Shown: positions 7,249 to 64,000 of the stretch, piece after piece
Layout: each line of letters opens with the position of its first letter
Numbering within the stretch: the stretch's first letter is position 1
DNA from: an uncultured Planctomycetia bacterium
GTDB lineage: Bacteria; Omnitrophota; Gorgyraeia; 2-02-FULL-51-18
Direction: 5' to 3'
NCBI GenBank assembly: GCA_964606485.1
Contig: CAZSGP010000003.1
Coordinates: 334,854 to 398,853, forward strand
Length of the DNA: 64,000 nucleotides
Translations under genes and position numbers: made by a program
The notes under the pieces: model-generated
Told to the model about the DNA's origin: nothing
The model's input: only the letters and a program-made list of their open reading frames with translations
The model's database searches: none

Positions 7249-7271
7249 AATCCCAAAAGTATAACATACCT

Positions 7272-7302
7272 AGTTCAGATCCGGGATCTGAACTGGTATA
7301 AT
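7272..7302 (+). promoter_or_regulatory. Perfect 23-bp palindrome plus an extended -10 box in the murI/helicase divergent region
   Basis: AGTTCAGATC-CGG-GATCTGAACT (7272-7294) is immediately followed by TGGTATAAT (7294-7302). The TATAAT overlaps the annotated helicase ATG at 7301. Confidence 0.4.
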
Positions 7303-11787: not shown

Positions 11788-12176
11788 TGGTGGAGGTGGG
11801 CGGAATTGAACCGCCGTCTCTAACGTTTAACGCGAAGCCTCTACATGCTTATTCGGGTATTTGGTGTCCCGTTCAAACTCGAACCGACGCGATTTTGAAC
11901 AGCAAGTCTTTGGCGCTCTTATTCTATCTGTCAAAGACCAACAGATAGAACCAGCCCGCTATCGACGCTCGGATCCACCCCGCAGGCGCGGATGGACGAA
12001 CGGTCAGCCGTTTAAGCGGCTAACGGAAGCGCCATATTCCCCGCGAAGGGAATACGCACGACGTTTAGGTTCGTGTTTTTAGCGTTTGATTTTTTGCCAG
12101 GTTATTAAAGAGGCCTCCTGACAACCTCTGCATGCGACTACCGGATCAAAGAGCTAGATCGAAACCTTTCACCCCC
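11788..12176 (-). ncRNA. ssrA: tmRNA (SsrA)
   Basis: The minus-strand RNA begins GGGGGUGAAAGGUUUCGA and ends GGUUCAAUUCCGCCCACCUCCACCA (tRNA-like T-arm and acceptor). It lies immediately downstream of smpB. An internal tag ORF ends ...AGNMALPLAA-UAA. Confidence 0.85.
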
Positions 12177-12661
12177 TATTTTCTGTTCTTGTTTTTTACG
12201 GCCCTATCGATATCCCGCCGCGCCGATTCTTTCTTCATGTCGGCGCGCTTATCGTAGAGATTCTTACCCTTCACGAGAGCAATTTCAACTTTTGCCATGC
12301 CTCGTGCATTTAAATAAACTTTAAGAGGAACAATTGCTAAACCCTTTTCCTGGGTTTTGACTTTAAGCTTCTCGATCTGCGCTTTGTGAAGGAGGAGCTT
12401 TCGATTTCGCAAAGGCTCTGGGTTTTGGAAACTTCCCATCTCGTAAGGGGCGATGTGCATATTATAGAGCATCATTTCATTCTTCTCAAGACGGGCAAAG
12501 CTCCCCGCAAGACTAGCTTTGTGGTTTCTTAACGACTTGATCTCACAACCCGTGAGCATAATCCCCGCCTCTATAGAATCCAGGACAAAATAGTCCCGAA
12601 AGGCATCCTTATTCGTCGTTACCACCGTTGAAATAGGCTTTTCTTTATCTTTGTCTTTCAT
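12176..12661 (-). CDS. smpB: SsrA-binding protein SmpB
   Basis: 161 aa, FRDYFVLDSIEAGIMLTGCEIKS. Confidence 0.9.
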   Translation of the reverse strand: MKDKDKEKPISTVVTTNKDAFRDYFVLDSIEAGIMLTGCEIKSLRNHKASLAGSFARLEKNEMMLYNMHIAPYEMGSFQNPEPLRNRKLLLHKAQIEKLKVKTQEKGLAIVPLKVYLNARGMAKVEIALVKGKNLYDKRADMKKESARRDIDRAVKNKNRK

Positions 12662-12690
12662 ATTGACTATTAATATACCACTCCGCTACA

Positions 12691-13134
12691 GTGTCTCTTA
12701 TGTTTTTTAAACCCTTCCACCTCTTAGGCATTGCCCTCATTGCAGGCCTCGGGCTTTCGATGAGTCCATGCGAAGCCGCAGAAACCACACTTCGCTCCAC
12801 CCATGAAGTCTCTGATGCTCGCATTAAAAAGCTGGAAAAGATGCACAACGATGCTGAGGCGCTCATCTTAACAAGCAATTTTGATGAAGCGATTCAAAAA
12901 TACAACGATATTTTAATTTATGAACCCGACGATGAAACCGCTTACGTCAATATGGGAAACGCTTACATGATTTTGGGGAATTTTATGAAAGCAGAAAATG
13001 CTTTTTCGAATGCGCTTCACATTAACCCCGACAATGCTTCCGCTCAGGCGGGTCTTCAGAAAATCAACGACCCCGACGGTCCTCCCGCAGAAGAGGCGCC
13101 TCTCAACCTAAGTCTTCGTAAAAAAGAATCTTAA
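12691..13134 (+). CDS. Secreted TPR-repeat protein
   Basis: Signal peptide plus TPR motifs. Paralog of the protein at 9861..10619. Confidence 0.7.
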   Translation: MSLMFFKPFHLLGIALIAGLGLSMSPCEAAETTLRSTHEVSDARIKKLEKMHNDAEALILTSNFDEAIQKYNDILIYEPDDETAYVNMGNAYMILGNFMKAENAFSNALHINPDNASAQAGLQKINDPDGPPAEEAPLNLSLRKKES

Positions 13135-14819
13135 ACTCTTCCCTCGCCTCGGCGGGATTTTTTATCTTCAAATAAATTCTGATCGGCAAGCTCAATTAAA
13201 TTTTGCGGATTTTTGGGGTGTGTGGGATTTTGACTCGGGTCAAACACGGCAATCCCAATGCTCATCGACGACGCCTTGAGAAGCGGATCACTTAAAAGCT
13301 GCGCCATGGATTCATACTGATGGCGCAAACGCTGACGGTAATCCTCAGCTTCTTTCACGCTTGCATGCCACAACAAAACAACAAACTCATCTCCGCCATA
13401 ACGTGACACCACGTCGTAGCCGCGGACACTCTTACGAATCACTTCCGCGGCACGGCAAATCATGTCGTTTCCGGTTTCGTGACCAAGCGTATCATTAATT
13501 TTTTTAAAGTGGTCAAGATCCGTCATCACCACAGAAATGGGGAGCTTCAAGCGGCTACAGCGGCGCCACTCGTCTTGAAGTCGCTGACGCAGGAAATCGT
13601 AGGTATAAAGCCCGGTCAACTTATCCTTAACCACTTGACGCTTCAGCCCCTCCCTTTCCAAGAAAAGACTAAAACTGACGAGAGATGCGCCCAGAGTCAA
13701 TGCAAGCGCAGGTCCAAAAAGTAAAATAAGCGGATCCACCGAAACGTCCTGCATAAGAAGGGCTTGAATTCCAAGAATTTCTCCAAAAAATGCGATTAGA
13801 AAACCAGCCATTCCAATCCAAAACGATCCCCACAAAAAAAGTCCCAGCACACAGAAACCAACCGCTGCAGAAACTCCAAGCGCTAGAGGGTCCGGTAAAA
13901 ATGAAAGACTTCTGCCGGATAAAATCGAGAGTGCTTCATTCGCATGCACACACATACCCGGCATCATCCCCAAAGGCGTGTTGTGCAGATCGCCTAGCGA
14001 GGAATCGTTTAAGCCAACAATGACCAGCCTCCCCTGGACTTCTTCCGGGCGAATCCGATTTTCAATCACCTTCCAAGCTGGAACCATTCTAAAATTTTTA
14101 TCCTCCGCCAAAAAATTAATGTCGTAACTTCCGTCCGGGTCCAAGTGAATTGGTTTTGGGGATCTAGAAATCTTTAAAAGCTGATATTCCGCGTCGTATG
14201 AAACTGGGCGCTGAGATGAGTCTGTCGCAAAATAAATTTCTAGCAGCTTTAATGAAAATGAGGGTTCAAATCTGTCGGAATTGCGATACGGTCTAAGTAA
14301 ATAAGAGCGGCGAATACACGCATCAATGTCTTGAATTTTCTCAAGGTATCCATACCCATCGGCCGCGTTCTCTAGCGGTTCATACGGCGGATAAATCTTA
14401 CCCCTGTCGTCAAACGTGGCCCCCAGCACCACTTTCCGCGACTCTTGCAGGGCCTGAGCCATGACGCGGCTTGCCTCGTCTGTAACACTCTCTGCTCCGG
14501 TAAATGAAAAATTAAGTCCCGTCACTTGTGCGCCTCGCGCGCTTAAATTCCGAACGATTTTAGAAAGCTCTGTGCGCGACCAGGGCCAGCGCAAACCGAG
14601 CTTCCGGCATGACTCCTCATCCACGCCAACCAAGAGAATATTTGAGATTTCTTTTGGTGGAGCCACGGCCCGGGCGCGAATTTTAAAAAAAACATCGCGT
14701 GCGCTTAGTGAAATTTTTTGGAATGTCTCGGAAGGATAGACTGTGTTAAAAAAAACAGTGGTGGCGAGAATATAAAAAATTACGGCCGTAGCCGGAAGAA
14801 TAAGTTTTTTTAATGACAT
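13131..14819 (-). CDS. CHASE2-sensor diguanylate cyclase (GGDEF)
   Basis: 562 aa. N-terminal TM helix, periplasmic CHASE2-like region, TM cluster, then C-terminal RYGGDEFVVLL. Confidence 0.8.
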   Translation of the reverse strand: MSLKKLILPATAVIFYILATTVFFNTVYPSETFQKISLSARDVFFKIRARAVAPPKEISNILLVGVDEESCRKLGLRWPWSRTELSKIVRNLSARGAQVTGLNFSFTGAESVTDEASRVMAQALQESRKVVLGATFDDRGKIYPPYEPLENAADGYGYLEKIQDIDACIRRSYLLRPYRNSDRFEPSFSLKLLEIYFATDSSQRPVSYDAEYQLLKISRSPKPIHLDPDGSYDINFLAEDKNFRMVPAWKVIENRIRPEEVQGRLVIVGLNDSSLGDLHNTPLGMMPGMCVHANEALSILSGRSLSFLPDPLALGVSAAVGFCVLGLFLWGSFWIGMAGFLIAFFGEILGIQALLMQDVSVDPLILLFGPALALTLGASLVSFSLFLEREGLKRQVVKDKLTGLYTYDFLRQRLQDEWRRCSRLKLPISVVMTDLDHFKKINDTLGHETGNDMICRAAEVIRKSVRGYDVVSRYGGDEFVVLLWHASVKEAEDYRQRLRHQYESMAQLLSDPLLKASSMSIGIAVFDPSQNPTHPKNPQNLIELADQNLFEDKKSRRGEGRV

Positions 14820-14844: not shown

Positions 14845-14926
14845 TGCGGAAGGAGGGATTCGAACCCTCAATCCTTGCGGCACTAGCTTCTGAGACTAGC
14901 GCGTATGCCAATTCCGCCACTTCCGC
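14845..14926 (-). tRNA. tRNA-Leu (anticodon CAG)
   Basis: Manual fold: acceptor GCGGAAG/CTTCCGC, anticodon loop CTCAGAA, long variable arm, T-arm GGTTCGAATCC. CCA is not encoded. Confidence 0.75.
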
Positions 14927-45745: not shown

Positions 45746-46306
45746 TTGCAAATGAAGGGTCTCGGTCAGAAAATCAAAACGCTCCGCAAATTTAAGCGCA
45801 TGACGCTGGTCGAAGTGTCGCAGAAAACGGGCATTGATCCGGCGACGCTGAGCCGCATGGAAAACGGTCGTATGACCGGCACGGTCGATAGCCACTCCCG
45901 GATTGCCGAAGTGTTGGGCATTCGCCTCCCCGATCTCTACGGGGACGTGATTGAGCGCTTAAACCAAGAAAAAGATCAGAAAATCAAACAGAAACTTTCG
46001 GGCTTTTCTCATTCTGACGGAGCCATTGCTGAACTCTTAACCACGTCCGTGATGCAGAAAAAAATGATGCCCACCCTGGTAAAGGTCAAGGGTCGTGGCC
46101 ACACCGAAGGCGAGCAGTACCCCGCTTTTACCGAGCGCTTTGTTTATGTTTTAAAAGGAAAGCTTGAGTGGGCTATCGGAAACGACAAAAGATCACTTAG
46201 CGAAGGCGAAAGTCTTTACTTTGACGCCTCCCAATTTCATCGGGGCACCAATTTACTCGCCACCGAAAGCAAATTTCTTTCGGTGATCACCCCCACCTCA
46301 CTCTAA
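45746..46306 (+). CDS. XRE-family HTH plus cupin-domain transcriptional regulator
   Basis: N-terminal HTH_3 (IKTLRKFKRMTLVEVSQKTGIDPATLSRMENG) and a C-terminal cupin. Confidence 0.75.
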   Translation: MQMKGLGQKIKTLRKFKRMTLVEVSQKTGIDPATLSRMENGRMTGTVDSHSRIAEVLGIRLPDLYGDVIERLNQEKDQKIKQKLSGFSHSDGAIAELLTTSVMQKKMMPTLVKVKGRGHTEGEQYPAFTERFVYVLKGKLEWAIGNDKRSLSEGESLYFDASQFHRGTNLLATESKFLSVITPTSL

Positions 46307-50461: not shown

Positions 50462-50707
50462 TTAAATCTCAGCGACTCGATGAAGAATTTCCGATATAAA
50501 ACTCTGATACTTCACCCCGAGCTTTGAGGCTTTTTGTTTCAAATGTTCCAGATCGCTGCGATTAACACGGATATTCAGCACAGCATCTTTTTTCTTGGAT
50601 TCGATAGCCTGCACAATAGAGGCTAATTCCTTTTGGCTAGCTGGAACAAATTCATGAATAGACCGCTCAATTGCTCGCTCGTCTCTACTAAGCTTTAGGC
50701 TTCTCAT
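50462..50707 (-). CDS. brnA: BrnA-type antitoxin (CopG/RHH-like)
   Basis: 81 aa. It lies 3 nt downstream of brnT. Confidence 0.65.
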   Translation of the reverse strand: MRSLKLSRDERAIERSIHEFVPASQKELASIVQAIESKKKDAVLNIRVNRSDLEHLKQKASKLGVKYQSFISEILHRVAEI

Positions 50708-50710
50708 CTT

Positions 50711-50962
50711 TCACTTCCTCCCGTATCGTTTCATCAAGCTTCTACTTGGATAAATTGTTTTTAAAAAAATAGCTTCCTCATCTTCGACAAATGGAACCGC
50801 CCATAGATAGTTTTTGTATTCATAAACTAAAATACTCTGATGAATGCGATCAGGATGCTTCAAGACTTCCACGAGCTTTGACCGAGTAATTTCTTCAAAT
50901 GAAACACCTCTCGTTTTCTTGAGGCGCTCGCTTTTCAAGGCATTCCAACGAACTTGCTTCAT
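50711..50962 (-). CDS. brnT: BrnT-family (DUF497) ribonuclease toxin
   Basis: 83 aa, with VEVLKHPD...YEYKNYLWAVPFVEDEEAIFLKTIYPSR. Confidence 0.7.
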   Translation of the reverse strand: MKQVRWNALKSERLKKTRGVSFEEITRSKLVEVLKHPDRIHQSILVYEYKNYLWAVPFVEDEEAIFLKTIYPSRSLMKRYGRK

Positions 50963-51587: not shown

Positions 51588-52409
51588 TTAATTTATTGGA
51601 ACGCTAGACACTATATCAATCGTATCATTTTCCGAAGCAGCTCTCTTTTTGGACTCAATTATGATTTGCTTCGGTAAAATTAGCGGGCTCTTGGTATCGT
51701 ACAAAACCTGAAAGGATTTATATATTTTCGATCGCGGGTCGAACGTTGTGGTCTTTTTTAAAAGGAACTTTTCAATTGGTAAACGCTCAAACTCGCATGA
51801 GATCACTTCCTGGATCTTATTGTTATTTATCATTTCAATTTTCTCTAACAGAGAATTTTGTTTGAAAAATAGTCTTAAGATCGACTGATGCTGAGAATTA
51901 AGTACATTTAGAACAATTTCATAATCATTAAAACCTAGCTCTCTCACAACCGTCACATTTTTTGAAATAAAAATTTCATCGAAAAGAAATAAATTCGTTT
52001 GCAGGGCATCTCGAATACGGTCCTTGGTATGAATCACCGCTTTAGCCACCATTGCCGTATCCGCTTTAGCCACCATCTCTGGTACGTTATCTGCACGGCT
52101 ATAAAATTGCATGGGACTAACCCATTTAACCTTAAATTTGACTTGCTGGAGCTGCTTATGGGCAATCGGATCTTTTACGCGGGAAACCATCTCATCAAAA
52201 AAGTGCGACTTACATTCAAACTCGGCACCTTTCAAGCCCTGCTCCGATAGATTGTAATATGATGCATTGATCTTAGAAATTTGCTCAGCTGATACCGGGA
52301 CAAAATTCTTACTATCGTCATGTTTATATGAGCATGAGGACATGAAAATGGAGCAAGCTATGAGGAAAATCGGGAGTTTTATTGAAACCGCCATATTAAC
52401 CCTTAACAT
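51588..52409 (-). CDS. Lipoprotein, function unknown
   Basis: Lipobox IFMSSC; 273 aa; low-GC gene. Confidence 0.55.
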   Translation of the reverse strand: MLRVNMAVSIKLPIFLIACSIFMSSCSYKHDDSKNFVPVSAEQISKINASYYNLSEQGLKGAEFECKSHFFDEMVSRVKDPIAHKQLQQVKFKVKWVSPMQFYSRADNVPEMVAKADTAMVAKAVIHTKDRIRDALQTNLFLFDEIFISKNVTVVRELGFNDYEIVLNVLNSQHQSILRLFFKQNSLLEKIEMINNNKIQEVISCEFERLPIEKFLLKKTTTFDPRSKIYKSFQVLYDTKSPLILPKQIIIESKKRAASENDTIDIVSSVPIN

Positions 52410-52479: not shown

Positions 52480-53175
52480 TTAATTTCTATTATTTTTTGG
52501 AAGAATATATTTTTTAGCGAAACTATCTTGATTTTCATAAGCCATAATTTCGTCTATCTTTCGCTTATATGCAATTTTGTGCTCTTCGATTCGACCTTGA
52601 TGAATGAGCGACTTCTCAATAATTATCGAGATGGAAGCAATCATAGTATTTGAATCCAAGAATATACTCGCATGACCCCCAATAAGCTCGGGAAAGATGA
52701 CTGTTTTAGCAAATTTTCCGTAGTCTAAGATCAGTTGTCCGGGCTCGCCATTATCCAAGTCCATTTTAAGATAGGCTTTTTTAGGAAAACCTAAATTTTT
52801 TACATTCGGTACTATAATGCTATATCCGGTTGGCTGATCACTAACTTTGATATCTATTTCATTTACAACTCCCGATGGGAGACGCTCATTCTGTCGAAAA
52901 CGGAATTTATCGCTTAGATCTATGTTCATTTGACGCGGGGTATTTTTATTTTCGTCACCCTCTATTACATCTGGCTTTTTAGACAGCACAGACTCGTGCG
53001 TAAAGGACGTATAGAGCCTATCTTCATCCTGTTTGAGCCCGTCCAGGAGATCATTTTCTGTATAACCGGCTGAACATATACATCCCATAAGCATAATAAC
53101 TAGGCTAGCGGTAGATAAAAGCTTCCATGCATTAACTTTATTTGTACAATATTTCAAGCAAGTACCTACCATCAA
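52480..53175 (-). CDS. Lipoprotein, function unknown
   Basis: Lipobox LMGC; 231 aa; low-GC gene. Confidence 0.55.
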   Translation of the reverse strand: MMVGTCLKYCTNKVNAWKLLSTASLVIMLMGCICSAGYTENDLLDGLKQDEDRLYTSFTHESVLSKKPDVIEGDENKNTPRQMNIDLSDKFRFRQNERLPSGVVNEIDIKVSDQPTGYSIIVPNVKNLGFPKKAYLKMDLDNGEPGQLILDYGKFAKTVIFPELIGGHASIFLDSNTMIASISIIIEKSLIHQGRIEEHKIAYKRKIDEIMAYENQDSFAKKYILPKNNRN

Positions 53176-53417
53176 TGCATCTCTATTTTTTTAACTTCTG
53201 GTTTTTTCTTTTGATTACTCTCTACCGGCCCAACGTAGGTAAAATTACCAATACGGGTAGCCGATAAATCATTACCGTTTTTTTGATTATCTTTTTCAAC
53301 CTCTTGGGCAAGAATTTTATTTAATTTTTCCCAATCTTTATCTTGCTTGCTGTCAGCCGCCCAGGCCGTAGGTAAAAATATCAAGCTTATCAACATCACC
53401 AAAATTATTTTTTTCAT
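53172..53417 (-). CDS. Small secreted protein
   Basis: 81 aa with a signal peptide. Confidence 0.45.
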   Translation of the reverse strand: MKKIILVMLISLIFLPTAWAADSKQDKDWEKLNKILAQEVEKDNQKNGNDLSATRIGNFTYVGPVESNQKKKPEVKKIEMH

Positions 53418-53463: not shown

Positions 53464-53769
53464 CTATCTATAAAAAATGGTTCCCAGATATCCTTTTTTA
53501 AAAAGGTAGCCACAATAACCAAAATTTAAACTTGTAAGAATGAGCAATCCAACCACTTTCCCAGTACTGCTGCTTAAATCCATATTGAAGGATTTTGCCA
53601 GGATTCCCATTACGACCAAGACGACAACCCAAATTGTCAATGCCGTAAAAAAACTTTTCCATCCTTCGAAAAATCGAATAGCTCCTAACAAGGCGGTGCT
53701 CCCAAAAAAGAGAATAAGATTTATAGTTTCGATTATTTCCATACTATCCCCAAATTCTGCACCACACAC
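53464..53769 (-). CDS. Small membrane protein
   Basis: ~91-101 aa with three hydrophobic segments. Confidence 0.45.
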   Translation of the reverse strand: MCGAEFGDSMEIIETINLILFFGSTALLGAIRFFEGWKSFFTALTIWVVVLVVMGILAKSFNMDLSSSTGKVVGLLILTSLNFGYCGYLFKKGYLGTIFYR

Positions 53770-53993
53770 TTATTTTAATTCAACCACTTAACTCCAACAA
53801 TTCTTAAACTAGCCTACCTTCTCAGTGGCTTTTCTTAGAGGTCTTAAATAGCCAAATCCCAAGACCCAGAAAAACTAATCCAAGAATTAAGCTTTGAGTT
53901 TTGAGCGTGTGGAAACGGATTAAAAAAATGGCTACGGCGAGAAAGTGCATCACGGAAAAAGCTATAAGAAAAAGGCTTAAGACCCGCCTAAAA

Positions 53994-54455
53994 CTAATCA
54001 ATGAGTTTTATCCAGCCATAACAAATACCTGGGTTGTTTTTAAAAAATGCTCCTGACGCATCCATTTCCGATGGAACACTTTCCTCATCAGGGGTATATT
54101 TTAAAATTGCGTGTAATTCATTATCCTGATTGACTAATTTGTTTTCAGTGCCTGTTAATTCTAGAAAGAATGGATCCTTACCTTCGTAATCATTAATCGC
54201 AGGTAAATAAGTAAGCAAATAAGTCGTCGAATATTTTAACCTTGCTTCATCGCTCAAGCCATCTCTATCTAATAGCAGCGGCTCATTCAGCCTAATAACA
54301 TACCCCCAAGATCCAAAAAGGAAACGCCTGACAAAAATCCCATTGAGCGTGGGCAGAAAAAGCTTAATGCCTTTTCTCTGATGAATTTCGTAGTCATAGG
54401 AATGTAGGCGAATTTGGACCTTCCTGCCAAGGACGTTATCTGAAAAGTAATTCAT
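53994..54455 (-). CDS. Hypothetical 153-aa protein immediately downstream of giant paralog 1 (candidate cognate immunity/partner)
   Basis: It starts 9 nt after the giant ORF's stop. Confidence 0.5.
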   Translation of the reverse strand: MNYFSDNVLGRKVQIRLHSYDYEIHQRKGIKLFLPTLNGIFVRRFLFGSWGYVIRLNEPLLLDRDGLSDEARLKYSTTYLLTYLPAINDYEGKDPFFLELTGTENKLVNQDNELHAILKYTPDEESVPSEMDASGAFFKNNPGICYGWIKLID

Positions 54456-54464
54456 GCTATTAAT

Positions 54465-57400
54465 CTACGTTAAGTCATCCAAAAAAGTAAACACAACATT
54501 TCGACTATCTATGTAACTCTGTTCTACAAAAATTTGAAGACCACCACCAAGACCGTTATCTCCGGCAGCCCTGCCGACGAAAAGTCGAACGCTGTCATCA
54601 AGCTCGACACTCGCCACTTTTGTGGCTTGATTAAACAGATTACCAGTTTCGTCGTATAGATTTAAAAATTGTCGTGCTGTATCGGTTGAATGTGCCCATT
54701 GCCCTGTCGTCAAAAACCTCCCCTCCAATGGCGAAGCCGCCCCATCATAAACTCGATACAAGTTCAACCTACCTTGCAGTCCTAACCTAGCTCTCAACTC
54801 ACCCGCTGTATACGTCTCAAACGCTCCAACTCCGGACTGAACCGATTCAAGAGTATTACCACCAAAAGTTTCAGCGATATCTCCGGAAAGTCGAAACGCA
54901 GGATTATTAGCTGCGGCAATTTCAGTAGTTGGACTTATCGATAAAAACCCCGCCTGCCCTAATTCCAGATTAACCGCACGCAAACCTGACGTAATGCCAC
55001 TAAGAGCTTCACCCACTCGAGGAACAAAACCAATTTCATGAAGAAGTTCTGCACCACCAACTGCATTGCCAACGGTGGAGAGAACACCCAATGCAATTTT
55101 TAATGAGCGATCAAAAGCTGAGAGTTGTTGGCCGCTTTGACTATCCACGCCATAAATTCCCTCAAGGAGAGGCGTGTATCCAACAAGATCTCCGACGGTT
55201 CCATGAACCGCCCAAAGCATTGCTTCGTTATCCGTGTATCCAAAAAGGGCTGATTTAAAGTAATTATATCGTGCTTGTGTTGCTTGGACCAGTTGAGCCG
55301 CTTGATTTTGTGCCAATATGGTTAGCATGTAATTACCAGGTGTCACGAGCGGCAAAACCTGCATCAAGCCTTGCTCCGTTAGCGGGTTAACGTTTCCAAA
55401 CCCGTACGCCAGTAATCTCCTAGCGGTCTCACTCAGAATTTGCTGAACCGAATAACTCCCGTCATTATTTCTTGAAAGCCTAAACCCCTCTCCACTTTGG
55501 AGCTGAGTCGGCAATATTGCGTCGAAGGGATCCATTGGCTGATAGAAAGTATACTCATTAATCGCCCCGGAATTTAACTCCAACCTAAAAATACCGTTAT
55601 AATTCGATTGAATGGTTCCGCTGTCGACTTGGCCTTGAGCATTAAAATTAATCGCTTGCTGATTGCTCGCTGCTGTTACTTCAAAACGTCTTGCTCCGCT
55701 CTGATCCAAGACTTCAATGTTATCTGCAAGGCCATTTGAGATGGTATAAACAGCTACGCTGCCATCACCCAGAGTTTCGGTTTGTCGTCCGGTTAAGAAT
55801 CCCCAATTTTCTATCTGATCCACTCCAAAGTGTCCGGCAATTTCTTTTCCTGCACCGCTCACACTCGTCACGTCCGTTAAGCTGGAAGTTGTTCCCACAC
55901 ACTCCCCTGTCGACGTACAAAACTGAGCTTCGATCTGTCCGTTCTTCTGAACTTGCTGGTAGTCGTGTCGATCGATCTTGTCCTGGAACCATTCGCCTAC
56001 GGATCTAAAGAGTTGGCTAGTGATAGGATTTACAGTTCTTAGAATCGACGAGATTGAGTCTTGGGTAAAAATATTCGCCGCATACGTATCAATCGCTTGC
56101 GCTAGACCTCTTTGTTGAATAATCGTCGAAAAATCTGTCACTCTTTGAAGATATTGAGCTTGAGAATAAGAATCCGTCCCAGTTCCCCCGAGTCTTGCGA
56201 CATTGAGGGCCGAGTCTCTGAACCCTTGGTATATTCCTCCAAAAATATCATGGTTGGGTGAAAGAGCTCCTTCTATCGCTCCTGTTATTGCTCTGGATGT
56301 GAGAGCTCCAAGAAGCGGATCCATGTTTTGAGTGGCATAGCTGATTCCAAGATTCGTCACCCCACGCAGTAGCCCGTCTTGAACAGACCGAATAATATTT
56401 TCTCCAAGAGTCTTTGCTTCGGTGTGAGTGGGGTTAAGGGCGCTTGAGACAGTGGTGGTGAGTAGCGCATTGATTCTAGGATCAAGTCCAATGGATGCTC
56501 CCAGTCTATCGATGCCGTAGATCGTTAAGTCTCTTGGGAGATTGGAAGCGATGGTTTGAATAGACCCATTGATGTCTCCGGTCCATGCTCCGTCAAAAAG
56601 AGGAGCTGCGGTAAGTGAAATTACCCCTGCAAGTTTAGGGTCTAATCCTGCGTGAACAAGGAGATCTTTTGATCCTGCGACAAGCGTGTTCTTTAGTCCA
56701 TCAAAGAAGAAGTTTGAGAAGTCCATACCGGTAGCGGTGAAGCTTCCGTGGATGCCGCCTGTCACAAAGCTTGAGATGAGGTTTGAGATTCGAGGGTCTA
56801 CTCCGAGCGCGTCAAGGCCTTTAGAGACGGCGTAGTTGACACCAATAGTGATGACGTTATGAAAGATTGCCTCTGAGGCAGAGACTTTAAGCGTTCCTGC
56901 GGCGACACCTTGAGGAGCTCCTAGAGAGAAGAGACTAGCTAGTCCATGAAAGAGTGTCGTTCCAACGTACTGAATGCCTTGGAAGATTTGGCCTGCGAAG
57001 GCTCCGACTTGAGTGAGGAATCCTCCGATGGCTTGGCCTAAGAGAGTCAGAGACTGAGCGATGATGCTGCCGATGCTTGCAAGAATAGCTCCAATACTCG
57101 AAAGAATCACGCCTACCGTTGTGGCAATCGAGACGATGGCCCCAATGATGGCAGGAATTAGGAAGAAACAGCCGCCTTTCAGTTGGCGAGCTTCAAAGAA
57201 AGACAGAATGTGCGATGTGGGGCTTGTGACTTGCGGAATAACCGTTGATTTTGCAAGGGTGTATCCCTTCCAAGCACTCAGAAACTCACTCTTTGAAAGC
57301 GTGTGGACACTTCCGTCGGTTTCAACGAGAGTGACTTGGGTGGAGGTTTGTTGAAATGCAGTATTTGGAAATAAATTAACGCTCGGAGCTTCGAATGAAC

Positions 57401-57467
57401 GGGCGGATTGAATTAAATAAAGATTGAGGTGAAGAAATACGAGGAGAGCTGAGAGAGATTTTTTAAG
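54465..57467 (-). CDS. Giant paralog 1 of the G(L/V)DP-repeat family, with a unique C-terminal domain
   Basis: The track ORF is 54465..57110 (GTG start). The homologous N-terminal 119 codons continue in frame up to 57467 with no ATG, GTG or TTG; the equivalent position of copy 2's TTG start is CTT. A strong AGGAGG SD lies 9 nt upstream. Confidence 0.6.
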   Translation of the reverse strand, partial: LKKSLSALLVFLHLNLYLIQSARSFEAPSVNLFPNTAFQQTSTQVTLVETDGSVHTLSKSEFLSAWKGYTLAKSTVIPQVTSPTSHILSFFEARQLKGGCFFLIPAIIGAIVSIATTVGVILSSIGAILASIGSIIAQSLTLLGQAIGGFLTQVGAFAGQIFQGIQYVGTTLFHGLASLFSLGAPQGVAAGTLKVSASEAIFHNVITIGVNYAVSKGLDALGVDPRISNLISSFVTGGIHGSFTATGMDFSNFFFDGLKNTLVAGSKDLLVHAGLDPKLAGVISLTAAPLFDGAWTGDINGSIQTIASNLPRDLTIYGIDRLGASIGLDPRINALLTTTVSSALNPTHTEAKTLGENIIRSVQDGLLRGVTNLGISYATQNMDPLLGALTSRAITGAIEGALSPNHDIFGGIYQGFRDSALNVARLGGTGTDSYSQAQYLQRVTDFSTIIQQRGLAQAIDTYAANIFTQDSISSILRTVNPITSQLFRSVGEWFQDKIDRHDYQQVQKNGQIEAQFCTSTGECVGTTSSLTDVTSVSGAGKEIAGHFGVDQIENWGFLTGRQTETLGDGSVAVYTISNGLADNIEVLDQSGARRFEVTAASNQQAINFNAQGQVDSGTIQSNYNGIFRLELNSGAINEYTFYQPMDPFDAILPTQLQSGEGFRLSRNNDGSYSVQQILSETARRLLAYGFGNVNPLTEQGLMQVLPLVTPGNYMLTILAQNQAAQLVQATQARYNYFKSALFGYTDNEAMLWAVHGTVGDLVGYTPLLEGIYGVDSQSGQQLSAFDRSLKIALGVLSTVGNAVGGAELLHEIGFVPRVGEALSGITSGLRAVNLELGQAGFLSISPTTEIAAANNPAFRLSGDIAETFGGNTLESVQSGVGAFETYTAGELRARLGLQGRLNLYRVYDGAASPLEGRFLTTGQWAHSTDTARQFLNLYDETGNLFNQATKVASVELDDSVRLFVGRAAGDNGLGGGLQIFVEQSYIDSRNVVFTFLDDLT
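56398..57036. repeat. ~640-bp block 100% identical to 60343..60980 (gene-conversion tract between paralogs 1 and 2)
   Basis: The two blocks match exactly. The flanking sequence is ~90% identical. Confidence 0.8.
57117..57370. repeat. Second near-identical block (3 SNPs) shared with 61063..61320
   Basis: Seen in sequence. Confidence 0.75.
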
Positions 57468-57485
57468 CGTGGTGATCCTCCTTAT

Positions 57486-58457
57486 TTATTCTTCATACCA
57501 AGAAGCGGATGCATCCGAGGAGTAACCCAAACCAGGCCCGAGGTAAGCGGGGGTTGTAATTTGCCATTCTCTATTGCCTTCCAAAGATTGGATAAAAATA
57601 GCCGAGCCGCCCGAAGGGACCGGCTTAGAGTAATATATTTTTTTTCCATCTTTCGAGAGGCCAATGTTCAGATAGAAGCCTTGCGCTTCTTTGATGATTT
57701 CTATTTTGCCCGTCTCGGTATCAAACTTACCAAGAATTCCGAAACGGTCGTTGAAGTGGGTGCCGTCATTTTGATAATTAGCGTGTATAACCGCATACCT
57801 GTTATCAGTAAGCCAACCAGCAATGCCAACGTTATAATTCAGTTTTCTGGTTTCTTGATTTCGAAAATTCTGAATCAAAACAAACGTGTCACCCTCAACC
57901 CCGAGCGTTGGCACAACAACATAAGCTGCTTTTTCTCTATTCCGACTGACCTTGATTTGATATACCTCGTAGCCTTTAGGAATCTCATATAATTTTCTTG
58001 ATTCTCCTGTTTGAAGATTATGGAGTATAACAGTGGCAGTTTTTTTGTCATCCGTCCAACCTTGGGCGTAAACAATATTATCTTCGTCTACCCAGTCTGA
58101 AGCATTAGGATAATACTCTGTTTTGACTTGCTGTAAAACATCTCCATTTTCATTTAGGATGTAAAGGGCATTATGCTCGTGAGCAGCGAGGATCTTCTGG
58201 CCGCTCGGAGAAAAAAGAGCTTCCGCTATCAAAAGACCCGAACCAAGTTCTTTGATTTGGCCATTCTTAAATAAATAAACCTCGGAGGACGTCTTGCTGG
58301 TGGGGTTTCTTTTAGCATCTATAAGCCATTTACCAGAAAATTGAACTGATGAAGAAGCTTCGCTTGAACGAGTTTTGGTCTGTGGTTCCTCCGAAGCATA
58401 GCAACCTGATATTGTGAGATTTAAAAAAATAAGTGCTACCGAAAAAAGTTTGCTCAT
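57486..58457 (-). CDS. TolB-like PD40 beta-propeller lipoprotein
   Basis: Lipobox LTISGC and PD40-like repeats (SPSGQKILAA, SKDGKKIYYS); 323 aa. Confidence 0.65.
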   Translation of the reverse strand: MSKLFSVALIFLNLTISGCYASEEPQTKTRSSEASSSVQFSGKWLIDAKRNPTSKTSSEVYLFKNGQIKELGSGLLIAEALFSPSGQKILAAHEHNALYILNENGDVLQQVKTEYYPNASDWVDEDNIVYAQGWTDDKKTATVILHNLQTGESRKLYEIPKGYEVYQIKVSRNREKAAYVVVPTLGVEGDTFVLIQNFRNQETRKLNYNVGIAGWLTDNRYAVIHANYQNDGTHFNDRFGILGKFDTETGKIEIIKEAQGFYLNIGLSKDGKKIYYSKPVPSGGSAIFIQSLEGNREWQITTPAYLGPGLGYSSDASASWYEE

Positions 58458-61411
58458 AACTGTCCGATGTAGTTAGTATAGGGCATCACACTGTTAACTC
58501 CACCTAGGAGAGCTGAGGAGACGTCGCCAGCACTTAGCGGTTGAGCCACGCCTTCCAATGATTTGGCGACGCTTATCTGTATAGCTTGATTAATAAGAGC
58601 ACTGTTTGATTGTAAAAGATTGTTAAACGATGGGGCATTGTTATTATTATTTTGAGTCGACAACTGAAGGTCAGTGGTTAGAATGCAAAGGCCCTTCGCT
58701 TGATCAACACGCGTTGTTCTAATTCGGACAATATCTTTATCAGAAATAACATCATGCTCATAAGACACACGAACTTTTAATTTAAAATCCGACGTCTGAA
58801 CTGATGCAAAGATTCCACCGCCGCCTGAGACACTGGCTTGTAGATTGGGTCCATTTACCCGCGTACTCCCCCTAAGGGTAGAAAGATCCATGGATGTACC
58901 ACCTTCTATTCTTCCGTTTCCACTTAAACCTGCAATAACCTGGAGATTATTAAACAACGTCGCTTTAAGGCCAACGGAGATATCGGTTCCAATCCTATAA
59001 CCATTGGAGTCTCCAATCACCGCGCGAACCATCTCCCCTTGGTTTAGATTGATGAATCCGAAGAGATCTTGATTGGCGCTTTGTCCATCCATAAACACGT
59101 GCCCGTCTTCACGGCTAAATCGAACTTCGCTCTGACCTATCTGCGTAGATTCTGTGCGAACCGATTGGACAAGAGCGAGAAGAGGTTGGCGACCAAAGAA
59201 TCGCTGCATTTGCACACCATAATCTTTGACCTTATCGAGTGTTTGTTGTGCGTTTATATAGCCCTGCTGTTGTAACTTTTGAAGAATTTGCTCGGGTGTT
59301 AAGGGCTGAGGATCAGAAAACTGATCCTGTAGGTTTGGATTTATTTCATTGGCATCAAAAAGCTGGTCAAGTATTGGAGCGGACTGCCTCATGAGATCAT
59401 TTTTAAAATTAATGAACATTCGAGCAGCGTCAGAGATGCCTGTGAAGCTTATCGCATAATTATTTTGAAGCTGGTCAAAATAAATCCTAGTCCCCCCAAA
59501 TTCCTGACCAACAACCACTCCATCATGGACAGAGAATGATCTGTTTTGAGCGTCTAGTTGACTTAGGGTTGCATCCACATACTCTCCGAAAGAATTAAAC
59601 GTATTATACCCTCCCTGAGAATTTGGTGTAACAACCAAAATGGTCTTCCCTGTTGAATCCTTTATTTCGACGTAAGTCTGCTGTCCATTTTGAATGCGTT
59701 GGAATTGCTCATGGGAATTAAATGGTGATTGGGCGCGAGCGAGAGATCCCTCTATCATTCCCCAGCTATTGGTATCTTGGACATCCACGCCAGAGCTTGA
59801 GATGGATTTGTAGAGGTCTTTGTCTGTTACGCCCAAAAGATGAGTGTCGTTATATTCAATCCCGATGGAGTTATCATCCAGGAGGCTTAAAGATTTAAGC
59901 GCTTGATTCCCCCGCTGAATCGTCTGCTCTTTTCCTTGAGCAATTCTTGTTTGAATCGCATTTTGGATACTTCCATAGGTACGGACGATGGATTCAACGG
60001 AATCAGCTTGAAAAATATTCGCCGCATAAGTATCGATAGCTTGAGCGAGGCCTCTCTGCTGGATAATCGTCGAAAAATCTGTCACTCTTTGAAGATATTG
60101 AGCTTGAGCATAAGAATCATTTCCCGTTCCCCCGAGCCTTGCGACATTGAGGGCTGAATCTCTAAACCCTTGGTAGATTCCTTGGAAAATATCATGGTTT
60201 GGTGAAAGAGCTCCTTCAATCGCTCCTGTAATGGCTCTTGAAGTTAACGCTCCAAGAAGCGGATCCATGTTTTGAGTGGCGTAGCTAATTCCAAGATTCG
60301 TCACTCCACGCAGCAACCCATCCTGCACCGACCGAATAATATTCTCTCCAAGAGTCTTTGCTTCGGTGTGAGTGGGGTTAAGGGCGCTTGAGACAGTGGT
60401 GGTGAGTAGCGCATTGATTCTAGGATCAAGTCCAATGGATGCTCCCAGTCTATCGATGCCGTAGATCGTTAAGTCTCTTGGGAGATTGGAAGCGATGGTT
60501 TGAATAGACCCATTGATGTCTCCGGTCCATGCTCCGTCAAAAAGAGGAGCTGCGGTAAGTGAAATTACCCCTGCAAGTTTAGGGTCTAATCCTGCGTGAA
60601 CAAGGAGATCTTTTGATCCTGCGACAAGCGTGTTCTTTAGTCCATCAAAGAAGAAGTTTGAGAAGTCCATACCGGTAGCGGTGAAGCTTCCGTGGATGCC
60701 GCCTGTCACAAAGCTTGAGATGAGGTTTGAGATTCGAGGGTCTACTCCGAGCGCGTCAAGGCCTTTAGAGACGGCGTAGTTGACACCAATAGTGATGACG
60801 TTATGAAAGATTGCCTCTGAGGCAGAGACTTTAAGCGTTCCTGCGGCGACACCTTGAGGAGCTCCTAGAGAGAAGAGACTAGCTAGTCCATGAAAGAGTG
60901 TCGTTCCAACGTACTGAATGCCTTGGAAGATTTGGCCTGCGAAGGCTCCGACTTGAGTGAGGAATCCTCCGATGGCTTGGGTCAATAAAGTGAGTGACTG
61001 GGCGATAATAGCGCCGATACTGGCGATAATCGTTCCAATTGCATAAATAATGGATCCTATTGTTGTGGCAATCGAGACGATGGCTCCAATGATGGCAGGA
61101 ATCAGGAAGAAACAGCCGCCTTTTAGTTGGCGAGCTTCAAAGAAAGACAGAATGTGCGATGTGGGGCTTGTGACTTGCGGAATAACCGTTGATTTTGCAA
61201 GGGTGTATCCCTTCCAAGCACTCAGAAACTCACTCTTTGAAAGCGTGTGGACACTTCCGTCGGTTTCAACGAGAGTGACTTGGGTGGAGGTTTGTTGAAA
61301 TGCAGTATTTGGAAATAAATTGATCTGTGGGGCTTCGAAGGATTGAGCGGACGAAAGAAGAATTAAATTAAGGTGGAGAAAAACTAGGAGAGCGGAGAGA
61401 AATTTTTTCAA
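58454..61411 (-). CDS. Giant paralog 2 of the G(L/V)DP-repeat family (985 aa)
   Basis: TTG start with no SD, and a signal-peptide-like N-terminus. A glycine-zipper hydrophobic segment is followed by repeats (LGVDPRISNL / AGLDPKLAGV / IGLDPRINAL / MDPLLGAL) and a unique C-terminal half. Confidence 0.7.
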   Translation of the reverse strand: MKKFLSALLVFLHLNLILLSSAQSFEAPQINLFPNTAFQQTSTQVTLVETDGSVHTLSKSEFLSAWKGYTLAKSTVIPQVTSPTSHILSFFEARQLKGGCFFLIPAIIGAIVSIATTIGSIIYAIGTIIASIGAIIAQSLTLLTQAIGGFLTQVGAFAGQIFQGIQYVGTTLFHGLASLFSLGAPQGVAAGTLKVSASEAIFHNVITIGVNYAVSKGLDALGVDPRISNLISSFVTGGIHGSFTATGMDFSNFFFDGLKNTLVAGSKDLLVHAGLDPKLAGVISLTAAPLFDGAWTGDINGSIQTIASNLPRDLTIYGIDRLGASIGLDPRINALLTTTVSSALNPTHTEAKTLGENIIRSVQDGLLRGVTNLGISYATQNMDPLLGALTSRAITGAIEGALSPNHDIFQGIYQGFRDSALNVARLGGTGNDSYAQAQYLQRVTDFSTIIQQRGLAQAIDTYAANIFQADSVESIVRTYGSIQNAIQTRIAQGKEQTIQRGNQALKSLSLLDDNSIGIEYNDTHLLGVTDKDLYKSISSSGVDVQDTNSWGMIEGSLARAQSPFNSHEQFQRIQNGQQTYVEIKDSTGKTILVVTPNSQGGYNTFNSFGEYVDATLSQLDAQNRSFSVHDGVVVGQEFGGTRIYFDQLQNNYAISFTGISDAARMFINFKNDLMRQSAPILDQLFDANEINPNLQDQFSDPQPLTPEQILQKLQQQGYINAQQTLDKVKDYGVQMQRFFGRQPLLALVQSVRTESTQIGQSEVRFSREDGHVFMDGQSANQDLFGFINLNQGEMVRAVIGDSNGYRIGTDISVGLKATLFNNLQVIAGLSGNGRIEGGTSMDLSTLRGSTRVNGPNLQASVSGGGGIFASVQTSDFKLKVRVSYEHDVISDKDIVRIRTTRVDQAKGLCILTTDLQLSTQNNNNNAPSFNNLLQSNSALINQAIQISVAKSLEGVAQPLSAGDVSSALLGGVNSVMPYTNYIGQL
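60343..60980. repeat. Partner of the 100%-identical block 56398..57036
   Basis: Seen in sequence. Confidence 0.8.
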
Positions 61412-61420
61412 AAAATAATT

Positions 61421-62533
61421 TTACGCAATCCAATCCGCAAATTCATCGGTAGCCCAGGCTCGGGGATGATTTATCGGATATCTTTTATCCCGCTGAGCCG
61501 GGGTTAGCCGAGCTTCTCCGGTACCGTCGAGATTCATGACGAATAGTTCGGCGCCCGTAAAAGGGAAATGGTGCCTATGGGAACTAAACACGATCTGTTT
61601 ACCGTCTGGAGAAAAAACGGGATAACGGTTATGCCATTTGTTTGGGCTAATTGGCCAGTCTTTGCCAGTTCTTACGTCGTATAGACAAATTTGCAGTCCA
61701 TCGGCAAATTCCCTACCACCACGATAATGCCTGGACGCAAAAACAATATAATTGCCATCAGGAGACCAGGCGGGATCATGTGCGTAATCAAGAATACGCT
61801 TCAAACCGGTTCCGTCTGCGTTTACAACGCTGATCGCTCCACCCTCATCAATAGCTATTCTTTTCCCGTCCGAAGATATTCTGAATAATATGATTCTGTT
61901 CATTCCCAGCATAGATTCTCGGTCTGTGATCCGCACCTCATTACCGGATTCAATATCATGCCGATAAATATTATCAGCCCCTCCGCCTGAGGGATTTTTA
62001 TCAACAGCTGCGTAGTAGACAGACTTTCCATCGGGAGACCAAACAACACTTTCAGCGCTCTTCTTTGTTTTGATACGGTATCTAATGGATCCTTCAAGAG
62101 CTAGGACGGGCGGGTCTTGATCTTCTTCATTAGTTTCACATAAGATACTTTTCCCATCCGGCGACCATCGAGGCTCTCTGAACTTTCCAAAACCACCGCC
62201 AAGCATCCCTTCAAGAGGTTTTAGTCCTTCGGGAGTTGTTTCGGCGAGGCTCCCGCCGTCGGCTATTTTTTTCATTTGTCCGTTTTCTAATACCCAAATC
62301 TCGGATGCTGAACCCGAACGATCACTTTGAAAAACAATTTTTCCGGGGACTTTTACTAGAGCATCTGAGTTAGATGTTTTTATGGGCTTAGGTGGCATGG
62401 GAGTATCTTTCTTTAGCTGGGAGAATATAAAAACTCCGAGAATAAGTAGAGCGGCTATGCTAAGTAGTGGGAGTATGGAGGATTTCTTCATTGATGTAGT
62501 GACGCAGTTCGTTGGGGTCAATTTTATTGTCAT
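61421..62533 (-). CDS. TolB-like PD40 beta-propeller protein with an N-terminal membrane anchor
   Basis: Repeats WSPDGKS (twice), WSPDGNY, FSPDGKQ; 370 aa. Confidence 0.65.
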   Translation of the reverse strand: MTIKLTPTNCVTTSMKKSSILPLLSIAALLILGVFIFSQLKKDTPMPPKPIKTSNSDALVKVPGKIVFQSDRSGSASEIWVLENGQMKKIADGGSLAETTPEGLKPLEGMLGGGFGKFREPRWSPDGKSILCETNEEDQDPPVLALEGSIRYRIKTKKSAESVVWSPDGKSVYYAAVDKNPSGGGADNIYRHDIESGNEVRITDRESMLGMNRIILFRISSDGKRIAIDEGGAISVVNADGTGLKRILDYAHDPAWSPDGNYIVFASRHYRGGREFADGLQICLYDVRTGKDWPISPNKWHNRYPVFSPDGKQIVFSSHRHHFPFTGAELFVMNLDGTGEARLTPAQRDKRYPINHPRAWATDEFADWIA

Positions 62534-64000
62534 GGTTATAGTCGGTTGGGCTGATGCCGAGTGTGCTCAGTAAATCCGAAACCACCCACTCACTGCAGAA
62601 TCGACTGCTACCATCAGACGATGGGATGTATCCGGGATTTATAATGCCAACTGAGTTAAAATGGATTTCTACGGTTGGGGCCATTGTTACAGTATTAATG
62701 TATCGTGACATTGTATCTCGCATAAATTCGCTTGCAACGTTAGCCGCAAGTGGCAACGCCTGCGCCACAATATCCAGAGAATCAGCCTCCCAATCTTCCA
62801 AAGAAAGCACTCTTAAATCATTACCGAAGAGAGACTGTTCAACTAGATCTGCGACATAGATTCTACCGTCATTGCCCTGAAACGCAATACCTGAATGATT
62901 CACTACAAAAGTCTCATCGCCTATTCTTGTCTGTGCTCGGACAGTATTGTATACAAAGCCTTGTGATGCGTTGTGAACAACGTATATTTGTCCGGGACTT
63001 GCCATCATTCGTTGGACCTCTGCGTTTCTGTGATCGGCGATTTCCTGGTTGGTGCGAGCGCCTAGCATTAAATGCGCGTTACTAAAACGCTGTAAGGTCT
63101 CTTCCCGCGTAAGAGCCGCGTTTTGAGGAGCGTTTGTTAGTTTGTTCATTAAATTATTTACGGCGTTAGGATCGGCGCCTTCCGTCGGGACATAACTGAC
63201 TTGCATCTGCCCCGTCTGGCCATCTTCCTGCACTCTAACACTGATACCCTCAAAGTCACCAGTTGCGACACCGAGTGACGCAAACAAATAATCATCGTTT
63301 GAATCTAAACCTAGCCGGAAGGGGTTGTTGGTGCTGGGCGCCAAAAGGGGCGCTTCATACATTTCGACGTACCCACCCTTAAGTGTCATGCGGTAGCCTT
63401 CGGGAAGTTCGAGATCCAAGTCTCTAAAAATATTAGCATCTTGATCAAACAGCAGTCCCACTGGAGTGGTCGTTGCAATGGTGGTAGCAGTCGCCTGTGG
63501 ATCTTCTTTGATCTGAGCATTATTGATAGCACCGCGGTCGACTTCTGAGACGACGCTATATCCGCTGCCGGCCTCAACGGCGGATACATTCCCTTCAAGC
63601 ATGCCGAACTTACCGTTTTGATCAAAGCCGTAGCGGGCGTTGGTTTCCTCGATAGTGATAGTTGTTTGCGTGCCACCATCCAAGAGAATCGTTTTGTCAT
63701 ATCTTCTACCCCACATATCCATTGTTGCCGGATCCAAATAGATATACTCTTGTTTTCCACCAGAGCTAAAGTTTACTTCCGTAACTTGAGTGCCGTTTAC
63801 TGTTCTAGTCGTTGCTTGGCCTGTTAGGAATTGGGCAATGCCACCATTAGCCCAAATATTTTGAACGGCAGATCCCGTGAATATTTGAGTGGCATTGGCC
63901 TCAAGCACGTGGCCTAAGCGCTGCAATAACGTTCCCTGGGACTGAGAGCTTATTGCGGAGCTAAAGTCCATGACTCTCGATAAATACTGGGCTTGCTGGT
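62460..64000 (-). CDS. Giant paralog 3, C-terminal >510 aa; the gene continues beyond the window end
   Basis: The frame stays open past the listed Met at 63971 (...AQYLSRVMDFSS, matching AQYLQRVTDFST of paralogs 1 and 2). The C-terminus is unique and ends in a dockerin/EF-hand-like DYNHDNKIDPNELRHYI. Confidence 0.6.
   Translation of the reverse strand, partial: QQAQYLSRVMDFSSAISSQSQGTLLQRLGHVLEANATQIFTGSAVQNIWANGGIAQFLTGQATTRTVNGTQVTEVNFSSGGKQEYIYLDPATMDMWGRRYDKTILLDGGTQTTITIEETNARYGFDQNGKFGMLEGNVSAVEAGSGYSVVSEVDRGAINNAQIKEDPQATATTIATTTPVGLLFDQDANIFRDLDLELPEGYRMTLKGGYVEMYEAPLLAPSTNNPFRLGLDSNDDYLFASLGVATGDFEGISVRVQEDGQTGQMQVSYVPTEGADPNAVNNLMNKLTNAPQNAALTREETLQRFSNAHLMLGARTNQEIADHRNAEVQRMMASPGQIYVVHNASQGFVYNTVRAQTRIGDETFVVNHSGIAFQGNDGRIYVADLVEQSLFGNDLRVLSLEDWEADSLDIVAQALPLAANVASEFMRDTMSRYINTVTMAPTVEIHFNSVGIINPGYIPSSDGSSRFCSEWVVSDLLSTLGISPTDYNHDNKIDPNELRHYINEEILHTPTT

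Follow-up and report, generated by a model that had tools for sequence, protein, structure and literature searches.

Layout of the array and its conserved front

The window analyzed here, a 64,000-nucleotide stretch of contig CAZSGP010000003.1 from an uncultured bacterium, ends in a tandem array of three related genes, which we call copies 1, 2 and 3, each followed by a smaller gene (Table 1). The genes run as an operon on the (-) strand, in the order copy 3, a 370-amino-acid (aa) PD40 propeller, copy 2, a 323-aa lipoprotein, copy 1, and genes of 153 and 59 aa, the last of which the preliminary description did not list. Spacing within the operon is tight, with 9-nt gaps or overlaps between genes, and scans for promoters and terminators gave hits at chance level only. 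The preliminary description of this DNA had reported three co-oriented open reading frames, and these are borne out at 54465-57110 (881 aa counted from the first GTG), 58454-61411 (985 aa) and 62460 to >64000. It had also called them giant, a term that suits their relatives and not the window proteins, which are ~1000 aa long. Copy 2 is identical to the database protein P0001.

Table 1. Features of the array, in window coordinates
Feature	Position	Strand	Basis or remark
Copy 3, C-terminal 512 codons only: junction AQYLSRVMDFSS, spacer, tip	62460..64000	(-)	Gene leaves the window
Copy 3 tip: putative permuted papain-like (C92/YiiX-type) cysteine hydrolase domain, EF-hand-like tail	62463..63206	(-)	
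Copy 3 immunity candidate: membrane-anchored PD40 beta-propeller, 370 aa	61421..62533	(-)	Start 62491 in another call
Copy 2: complete short-form putative toxin, 985 aa	58454..61411	(-)	TTG start
Copy 2 signal peptide, aa 1-24, MKKFLSALLVFLHLNLILLSSAQS	61340..61411	(-)	Hydropathy and direct reading
Copy 2 C39-like remnant (aa 44-81), then double-glycine-leader motif LSFFEARQLKGG (aa 88-99)	61115..61282	(-)	Family profile
Copy 2 glycine-zipper hydrophobic segment, aa 100-194	60830..61114	(-)	
Copy 2 four ~54-aa helical hairpin repeats, aa 196-410	60182..60826	(-)	AF2, hhalign
Copy 2 conserved junction helices, aa 411-467, ending AANIF	60011..60181	(-)	Copy 1/2 recombination breakpoint
Copy 2 C-terminal region, aa 468-985: ~175-aa family-wide spacer and ~300-aa tip	58457..60010	(-)	
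Copy 2 immunity candidate: 323-aa lipoprotein, lipobox ISGC	57486..58457	(-)	Start overlaps copy 2 stop
Copy 1 open frame, ~1000 aa counted from the codon aligned with the copy 2 start (57467)	54465..57485	(-)	
Copy 1 PT-TG-like pre-toxin segment GYTPLLEGIYGVDSQSGQQLS	55062..55208	(-)	Pfam PT-TG, sub-threshold
Copy 1 tip, ~148 aa, unique	54468..54911	(-)	
Copy 1 immunity candidate, 153 aa, no signal peptide, predicted cytoplasmic	53994..54455	(-)	
59-aa two-helix membrane protein	53822..54001	(-)	TTG start overlaps 153-aa gene stop; conserved 3' flank of the cassette

Copies 1 and 2 have the same front, which consists of a signal peptide, a ~40-residue tail of a C39-like domain, the motif LSFFEARQLKGG, a 95-residue glycine zipper and four hairpin repeats. 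The signal peptide and the Gly/Ala/Ile-rich segment had been ascribed to all three copies; this holds for copies 1 and 2, and the N-terminus of copy 3 lies beyond the window. Hydropathy analysis finds no charged residue in the zipper of copy 2, and an AlphaFold-type (AF2) model predicts it, with low confidence, to be helical. The conserved module as a whole is modeled as all-helical hairpins. Each repeat unit is an amphipathic helix-turn-helix with G(L/V)DP or MDP at the turn (predicted local distance difference test, pLDDT, 75-93), and profile-profile comparison (hhalign) finds the four units mutually homologous, with 92-97% probability in four of the six pairs. The repeats noted earlier at ~40 aa are real, with a longer unit of ~53-55 aa that forms one helical hairpin each.

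The scaffold module has no significant match in Pfam or NCBIfam. To that extent the earlier statement that no domain is recognizable still applies, but a C39 remnant, a double-glycine-leader motif, a sub-threshold PT-TG segment and PD40 repeats were found at the locus. A match of the zipper profile to FtbJ (E 0.007) was dismissed as compositional.

At the DNA level, the comparison of copies 1 and 2 is a mosaic. Reading 5' to 3', the alignment passes from a diverged signal peptide through ~99.6% identity over 260 nt, a diverged stretch of ~80 nt inside the zipper, 100% identity over 635 nt and ~90% over 335 nt, and then to zero similarity past the AANIF codons. The pattern points to a recent event of gene conversion or recombination, not to simple divergence. 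Two short Logan contigs were recovered for the array, and both break at the repeat. Contig L020, which holds an exact copy of the 370-aa propeller gene, lengthens copy 3 by 90 aa and reveals repeat 4; the extension starts with TLGENIIRSVQDGLLRGVT, identical to copies 1 and 2, and then diverges inside repeat 4, which points to a third, earlier breakpoint.

Variable tips and downstream partners across the family

A first word-indexed search returned only 12 relatives, and the same search with the module profile returned 7 proteins. An exhaustive profile search recovered 629 representative clusters (50% identity), 136 of them at E <= 1e-30. Relatives bear the taxon labels Omnitrophica or Planctomycetia. 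Most relatives are 2000-4800 aa long and carry the module ~900 aa from the C-terminal end. The giant members have N-terminal signal peptides, Laminin_G_3 (lectin) and RHS_repeat domains, and Peptidase_C39 directly ahead of the zipper. Giants such as P0015, P0017 and P0035 also share FSYSQLLWAADVRQMLLDAKA at the end of the signal peptide, a motif that may serve specifically for sorting or processing. We fetched 18 related loci from public genomes and metagenomes; 2 were duplicates, leaving 16 non-redundant loci.

The C-terminal halves of the three copies had been described as completely unrelated. This is true of the tips, but the first ~170 residues past the junction are a diverged spacer found family-wide. 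Tips from the 123 members with complete ends fall into 34 classes, a minimum for the family as a whole, and some have Pfam matches to Tle3 phospholipase, several lipase-type hydrolases or RES. The combination that defines polymorphic toxins, a scaffold followed by differing C-terminal domains, is therefore present.

Of the three tips in the window, only that of copy 3 suggests an activity. When it is aligned with seven relatives, an invariant His (VNHS) stands ahead of an invariant Cys (RFCSE), the order expected for the permuted C92/YiiX type of the NlpC/P60 superfamily, in which a papain-like fold has its His before the catalytic Cys. The AF2 model of the tip (predicted template modeling score, pTM, 0.68; pLDDT 66) would have this fold, and the counterpart in locus L013 matches Pfam C92 below threshold (E 0.003). 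Neither Foldseek with the model nor sequence comparison gave a meaningful match in the PDB. We therefore describe the tip as one that models as a putative YiiX/TseH-like permuted cysteine hydrolase.

Sequence searches of Pfam, NCBIfam and the PDB found no match for the tips of copies 1 and 2. The copy 2 tip resembles none of the 153 other family proteins compared, and a word-indexed search with the copy 1 tip came back empty, though it missed the self match too. An R...S/T...E pattern like that of ADP-ribosyltransferases and RES domains was suspected in the copy 1 tip and several others; jackhmmer and Pfam gave it no support, RES being found in the P0041 tip only, and the idea was dropped.

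The pairing of a variable C-terminus with a cognate partner gene, which the preliminary description had proposed looking for in related genomes, holds at every one of the 16 non-redundant loci. A single toxin gene is followed there, immediately 3' and co-oriented, by a gene of 110-216 aa (368 aa in L013), and tips and partners change together. Where tips are related, so are the partners: the ends of copy 3 and its L013 counterpart are 29% identical over their whole length, and the propeller of 370 aa shares 43% identity with the gene that comes after the L013 toxin, while L008 and L010 have ends that are 40% identical and TPR partners that are 53% identical. Partner folds vary among propeller, TPR, lipocalin-like and others with no assigned fold.

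The converse can be seen in the PT-TG class, formed by copy 1, L011/L012 and L017. Here homology stops at window position 54912, is absent across tip and partner, and returns in the 59-aa protein; set against L011, the window thus shows one cassette replaced by another within conserved flanks. The three tips and three partners of the class are mutually unrelated (z ~0), compared with z = 122 for the propeller pair used as a control. Copies of the 59-aa membrane protein that are 54-65% identical follow the candidate immunity gene in L011/L001/L012 and L017, and they occur at loci of the PT-TG class only. This ~60-aa two-helix protein (L011 8778-8963; L017 3364-3504) could protect against a membrane-active module or aid export.

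In the window, the 370-aa partner of copy 3 matches Pfam PD40 (2.9e-27), and the 323-aa lipoprotein partner of copy 2 gives a weak PD40/TolB-like signal. What had been taken for one propeller gene occurring twice is actually these two different propeller-like genes, 21% identical. Both products are predicted to be located in the envelope, one as a membrane-anchored propeller and the other as a lipoprotein. For the 153-aa partner of copy 1, neither a Pfam or NCBIfam match nor a signal peptide was found; the absence of the latter suggests a cytoplasmic target for that tip. Position directly downstream and change with the tip are what one expects of immunity genes, a role that the partners would thus be candidates to fill.

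The preliminary description had offered two readings of the locus, polymorphic toxin/immunity pairs or antigenically diversifying surface proteins, and the second leaves the co-varying partner genes unexplained. In a fuller version of that second reading, the array would encode surface adhesins or envelope proteins whose ends vary for antigenic or receptor diversification, with the partners as chaperones or assembly factors. The signal peptide, the membrane-anchoring hydrophobic segment and the repeats would suit such proteins, as would the lectin and RHS repeats of the giant relatives and the lack of a recognizable enzyme fold in the tips of copies 1 and 2. However, the family's tips include enzyme folds typical of antibacterial effectors, and the partners are unrelated in fold yet follow the tip class. 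One partner is predicted to be cytoplasmic and so would not be an assembly factor for a surface protein. We regard this explanation as very unlikely. The toxin/immunity reading is instead supported by the partner after each related toxin gene, by tip-partner co-variation and by the effector-like tips.

In L014 (11470-13616), a 3829-aa toxin gene is followed by two duplicated small-gene pairs (d1 and d2 30% identical, d3 and d4 32% identical); d1 and d2 have sub-threshold Pfam matches to DUF3994 and lipocalin-like families, and the layout resembles a poly-immunity array. In L004, L005 and L007 (~6586-8827, 12191-13381), short members of 907-922 aa that have no signal peptide immediately follow two tyrosine recombinase genes and are themselves followed by a gene for an IS200-like Y1 transposase. 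Homologues of this transposase gene lie 3' of the candidate immunity gene in L006, L010, L013 and L015. Cassettes may move in association with recombinases.

The C39-like domain and known systems

The family profile of the C39-like domain matches the peptidase domain of PCAT1 (E 1.8e-7), as well as ComA and LahT-type domains, and the His is kept in 92 of 93 relatives. Directly before the zipper, the same 93 relatives carry a motif with L/I at -12 (88/93), S/T at -11 (72/93), E/Q at -8 (73/93), I/V at -4 (90/93), G at -2 (93/93) and A/S/G at -1 (92/93). The consensus of class II bacteriocin leaders is well established, and these counts reproduce it. By sequence, then, a C39-type domain and the motif that such domains usually recognize lie in cis, immediately ahead of the zipper. 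In copy 2 the motif is internal, past the Sec signal peptide. A family profile search found no further C39-like domain elsewhere in the window.

A close parallel for these elements is with double-glycine-leader bacteriocins and their C39 ABC exporters (PCAT1, ComA), which share the LSxxExxxIxG[G/A/S] motif and a C39-type domain, the one here matching the PCAT1 peptidase domain. The Cdz bacteriocins of Caulobacter are glycine-zipper proteins, and the likeness to them lies in a zipper segment right after a cleavage-type site. In contrast to these bacteriocins, the motif here is internal, the C39-like domain belongs to the same polypeptide and not to an ABC exporter, Ser stands at the inferred place of the Cys in 82/93 relatives, and the cargo is ~900 aa rather than a peptide. 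No such exporter is encoded in the window.

Membership in the contact-dependent inhibition (CDI), Rhs or MafB systems was rejected because their defining domains are absent. Pfam and NCBIfam searches found no TPS domain, FHA repeats or VENN motif in the window proteins. No CdiB was found, with the neighbors scanned in part and the region upstream of copy 3 outside the window. The window copies have no RHS match in Pfam, and in the giants the C39-like domain and the ~420-aa module come between the RHS repeats and the toxin.

Some features are nevertheless held in common with these systems. As in CDI loci (CdiB/CdiA/CdiI, with orphan cdiA-CT/cdiI), toxin ends stand in tandem, each with its own immunity gene, shared upstream sequence permits recombination, a downstream copy has no proper start codon, and a central segment has been proposed for membrane insertion. 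In contrast to CDI, the array would be exported by a Sec signal peptide, and its downstream copies are nearly full short forms with signal peptides, not bare ends. Sec-dependent RHS/pre-toxin systems such as WapA/WapI (PMC3482391) likewise have a signal peptide, a conserved scaffold, a variable C-terminal toxin, possibly PT-TG, an immunity gene directly 3', tip exchange by recombination, and RHS repeats, which here are found in the giant relatives. However, the toxin of our family does not follow an Rhs core; the C39-like domain, leader motif, zipper and four hairpins lie between stalk and toxin. In the 2012 catalogue of polymorphic toxins (Zhang et al. 2012, PMC3482391), C39 appears as a toxin domain only and not in a processing role.

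For the copy 3 tip, the systems to compare are the NlpC/P60 effectors of the type VI secretion system (TseH, Tse1, Ssp1) and E. coli YiiX (Pfam C92). The tip differs from them in having no significant sequence match, in its delivery scaffold, and in its PD40 propeller partner.

Finally, giant C39 proteins have been reported from Omnitrophota. By description they are comparable: C39 domains occur in very long proteins, of Sec type or transmembrane, in similar uncultured bacteria, and the authors propose that the C39 domain cleaves the protein (10.1101/2023.11.21.568195; 10.64898/2026.06.07.730766). The passages of these two papers that speak of 'toxin' or 'immunity' include no variable toxin ends or immunity genes, and the word 'glycine' is absent from both texts. 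Our search of the literature for this combination of features found nothing closer.

A probable toxin-immunity array and its wider meaning

Taken together, these observations make it likely that the locus encodes Sec-exported polymorphic toxins in tandem, every one of them paired with a cognate immunity gene, and that the toxins are members of a large family of uncultured bacteria beyond the reach of domain libraries. Toxicity, immunity, cleavage at the G-G site and the route of delivery are parts of a model that we derive from gene content and arrangement. In this model, Sec would take the protein across the inner membrane. The in-cis C39-like domain of full-length relatives would recognize, and perhaps cut, the adjacent G-[A/S/G] site, and the cut would release the zipper, hairpins and toxin from the giant lectin/RHS stalk. 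The short window copies have no complete C39-like domain and would need cleavage in trans, or none. The zipper and hairpins would then insert in a membrane and bring the tip into or onto a neighboring cell, where it would harm the target; the copy 3 tip might do so as a YiiX/TseH-like cysteine hydrolase acting on cell-envelope substrates. The downstream gene would shield the producer, and predicted partner localization (envelope for copies 3 and 2, cytoplasm for copy 1) fits the toxin-immunity assignment. Tips could diversify by homologous recombination or gene conversion between identical fronts, and by cassette exchange between conserved flanks.

A bolder version of this model, which we put forward tentatively and consider doubtful, treats the block as a hitherto unrecognized, self-contained release-and-translocation device made of the C39-like domain, the in-cis double-glycine site, the glycine zipper and the four G(L/V)DP hairpins. 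A Ser-variant C39 domain would cut its own chain at the adjacent leader-type site, and the freed module, whose fold may resemble that of the protein-conducting Tim17/Tim22/OEP16 family, would insert in the target membrane and conduct the ~450-aa toxin end across.

Several findings weigh against the assignment as toxins, or against parts of the model. None of the other recovered loci has a tandem array; each has one copy. A single alpha/beta-hydrolase-like class accounts for 59 of the 123 tips; with about half of the tips in this one class, hypervariability does not extend to a large part of the family. For the tips of copies 1 and 2 no match of any kind turned up, and it is genomic context that marks them as candidate toxins. 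The PT-TG matches of copy 1 (E 0.014-0.024) and L017 (E 0.0015) fall at homologous positions, but both are below the 23.5-bit Pfam cut-off, and L011 has no PT-TG match. The window copies have no catalytic part of the C39-like domain: only positions 147-188 of the 196 in the profile are matched (copy 2, E 2e-5), and a complete Peptidase C39 with Cys, His and Asp is absent from them. In the relatives, the HFGxSA motif has Ser in 82/93 and Cys in 2/93 at the place inferred for the catalytic Cys, which lies outside the hidden Markov model alignments. With a Ser at the expected Cys and alignments that stop short of the site, cleavage is a putative step.

The start of copy 1 adds to these points. 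Its frame is open from 57485, where the lipoprotein gene stops, and is homologous to the N-terminus of copy 2, including the signal-peptide region. It contains no ATG, GTG or TTG until the GTG at 57110, and hence has no canonical start. A strong Shine-Dalgarno sequence, AAGGAGG, lies 6-9 nt ahead of ACG/CTT (57465-57485, (-) strand), where copy 2 has TTG, and the region is identical in an independent short-read assembly (contig L019). Copy 1 would therefore be weakly initiated, perhaps through translational coupling, or silent; the site could be one of non-canonical or coupled initiation, or mark a silenced cassette. Copy 1 may be a weakly expressed reserve cassette.

This start problem raises the question of whether copies 1 and 2 are inactive debris, 5'-truncated pieces of a giant gene left after duplication or recombination. 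Besides the missing start codon of copy 1, both copies lack the first two thirds of the C39-like domain and all that precedes it, and short relatives without signal peptides adjoin recombinase and transposase genes. However, both frames stay open for ~1000 codons, and both begin with a signal-peptide-like N-terminus, which is absent from the corresponding place in the giants. Each copy also keeps an intact partner gene with translational coupling, and the Shine-Dalgarno sequence precedes copy 1. Of all the explanations weighed here, we give debris the least credence.

An alternative with the same architecture and another purpose is predatory or epibiotic attack, or feeding, in which the ends would degrade the prey envelope as lipases or amidases and the partners would be self-protecting inhibitors. 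The relatives are labelled Omnitrophica, and one of the papers cited above (10.1101/2023.11.21.568195) connects the C39-bearing giants of Omnitrophota with the breakdown of cell walls by predators. Half of the family's tips are lipase-like hydrolases, the copy 3 tip is modeled as an NlpC/P60-type hydrolase, and the giants' lectin domains would suit binding to foreign surfaces. On the other hand, swapping of tip and immunity cassettes between conserved flanks and a cytoplasmic partner, as predicted for copy 1, typify competition between related strains. Predation is improbable as the sole purpose, although it and kin competition are not mutually exclusive.

Outside the array, the window is ordinary chromosome, with genes for AcrB, a type III glutamine synthetase, a GH57 branching enzyme and tmRNA (Rfam 170.8 bits; 11788-12176, (-)), and an equally ordinary tRNA gene (14845-14926, (-)). 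Directly downstream of the array, between 50000 and 54000, GC content drops from ~47% to 38% in an island of small genes. These include two lipoprotein genes with lipoboxes and no Pfam match (51588-52409, 52480-53175) and genes for an 81-aa secreted protein (53172-53417) and a 101-aa three-helix membrane protein (53464-53769), and they may be acquired accessory or orphan-immunity genes. At 50462-50962 (-), the gene for an 81-aa CopG-type antitoxin (Pfam 2.9e-7) adjoins that of an 83-aa partner with no family match, probably forming a type II toxin-antitoxin pair. A helix-turn-helix-plus-cupin regulator at 45746-46306 (+) shares 59% identity with a gene that neighbors the 2631-aa family member of L010, which suggests a conserved neighborhood or a related organism.

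The toxin-immunity array thus looks like a known kind of bacterial warfare locus built on a delivery scaffold that is absent from domain databases. If this is correct, a scaffold family of ~630 clusters would enter the catalogue of antagonism systems, from lineages that have almost no cultured members and whose weapons and ecology are known from genomes alone. The presence of a bacteriocin-type leader and a peptidase-like domain in one giant protein, beside a zipper, suggests a mechanism of release or translocation. The many unmatched tip classes would be a source of candidate new toxin activities, and their partners, PD40 propellers and TPR proteins among them, could supply immunity folds. 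The toxin-immunity model would also give a concrete function to some of the giant C39-bearing proteins described in Omnitrophota-type bacteria.

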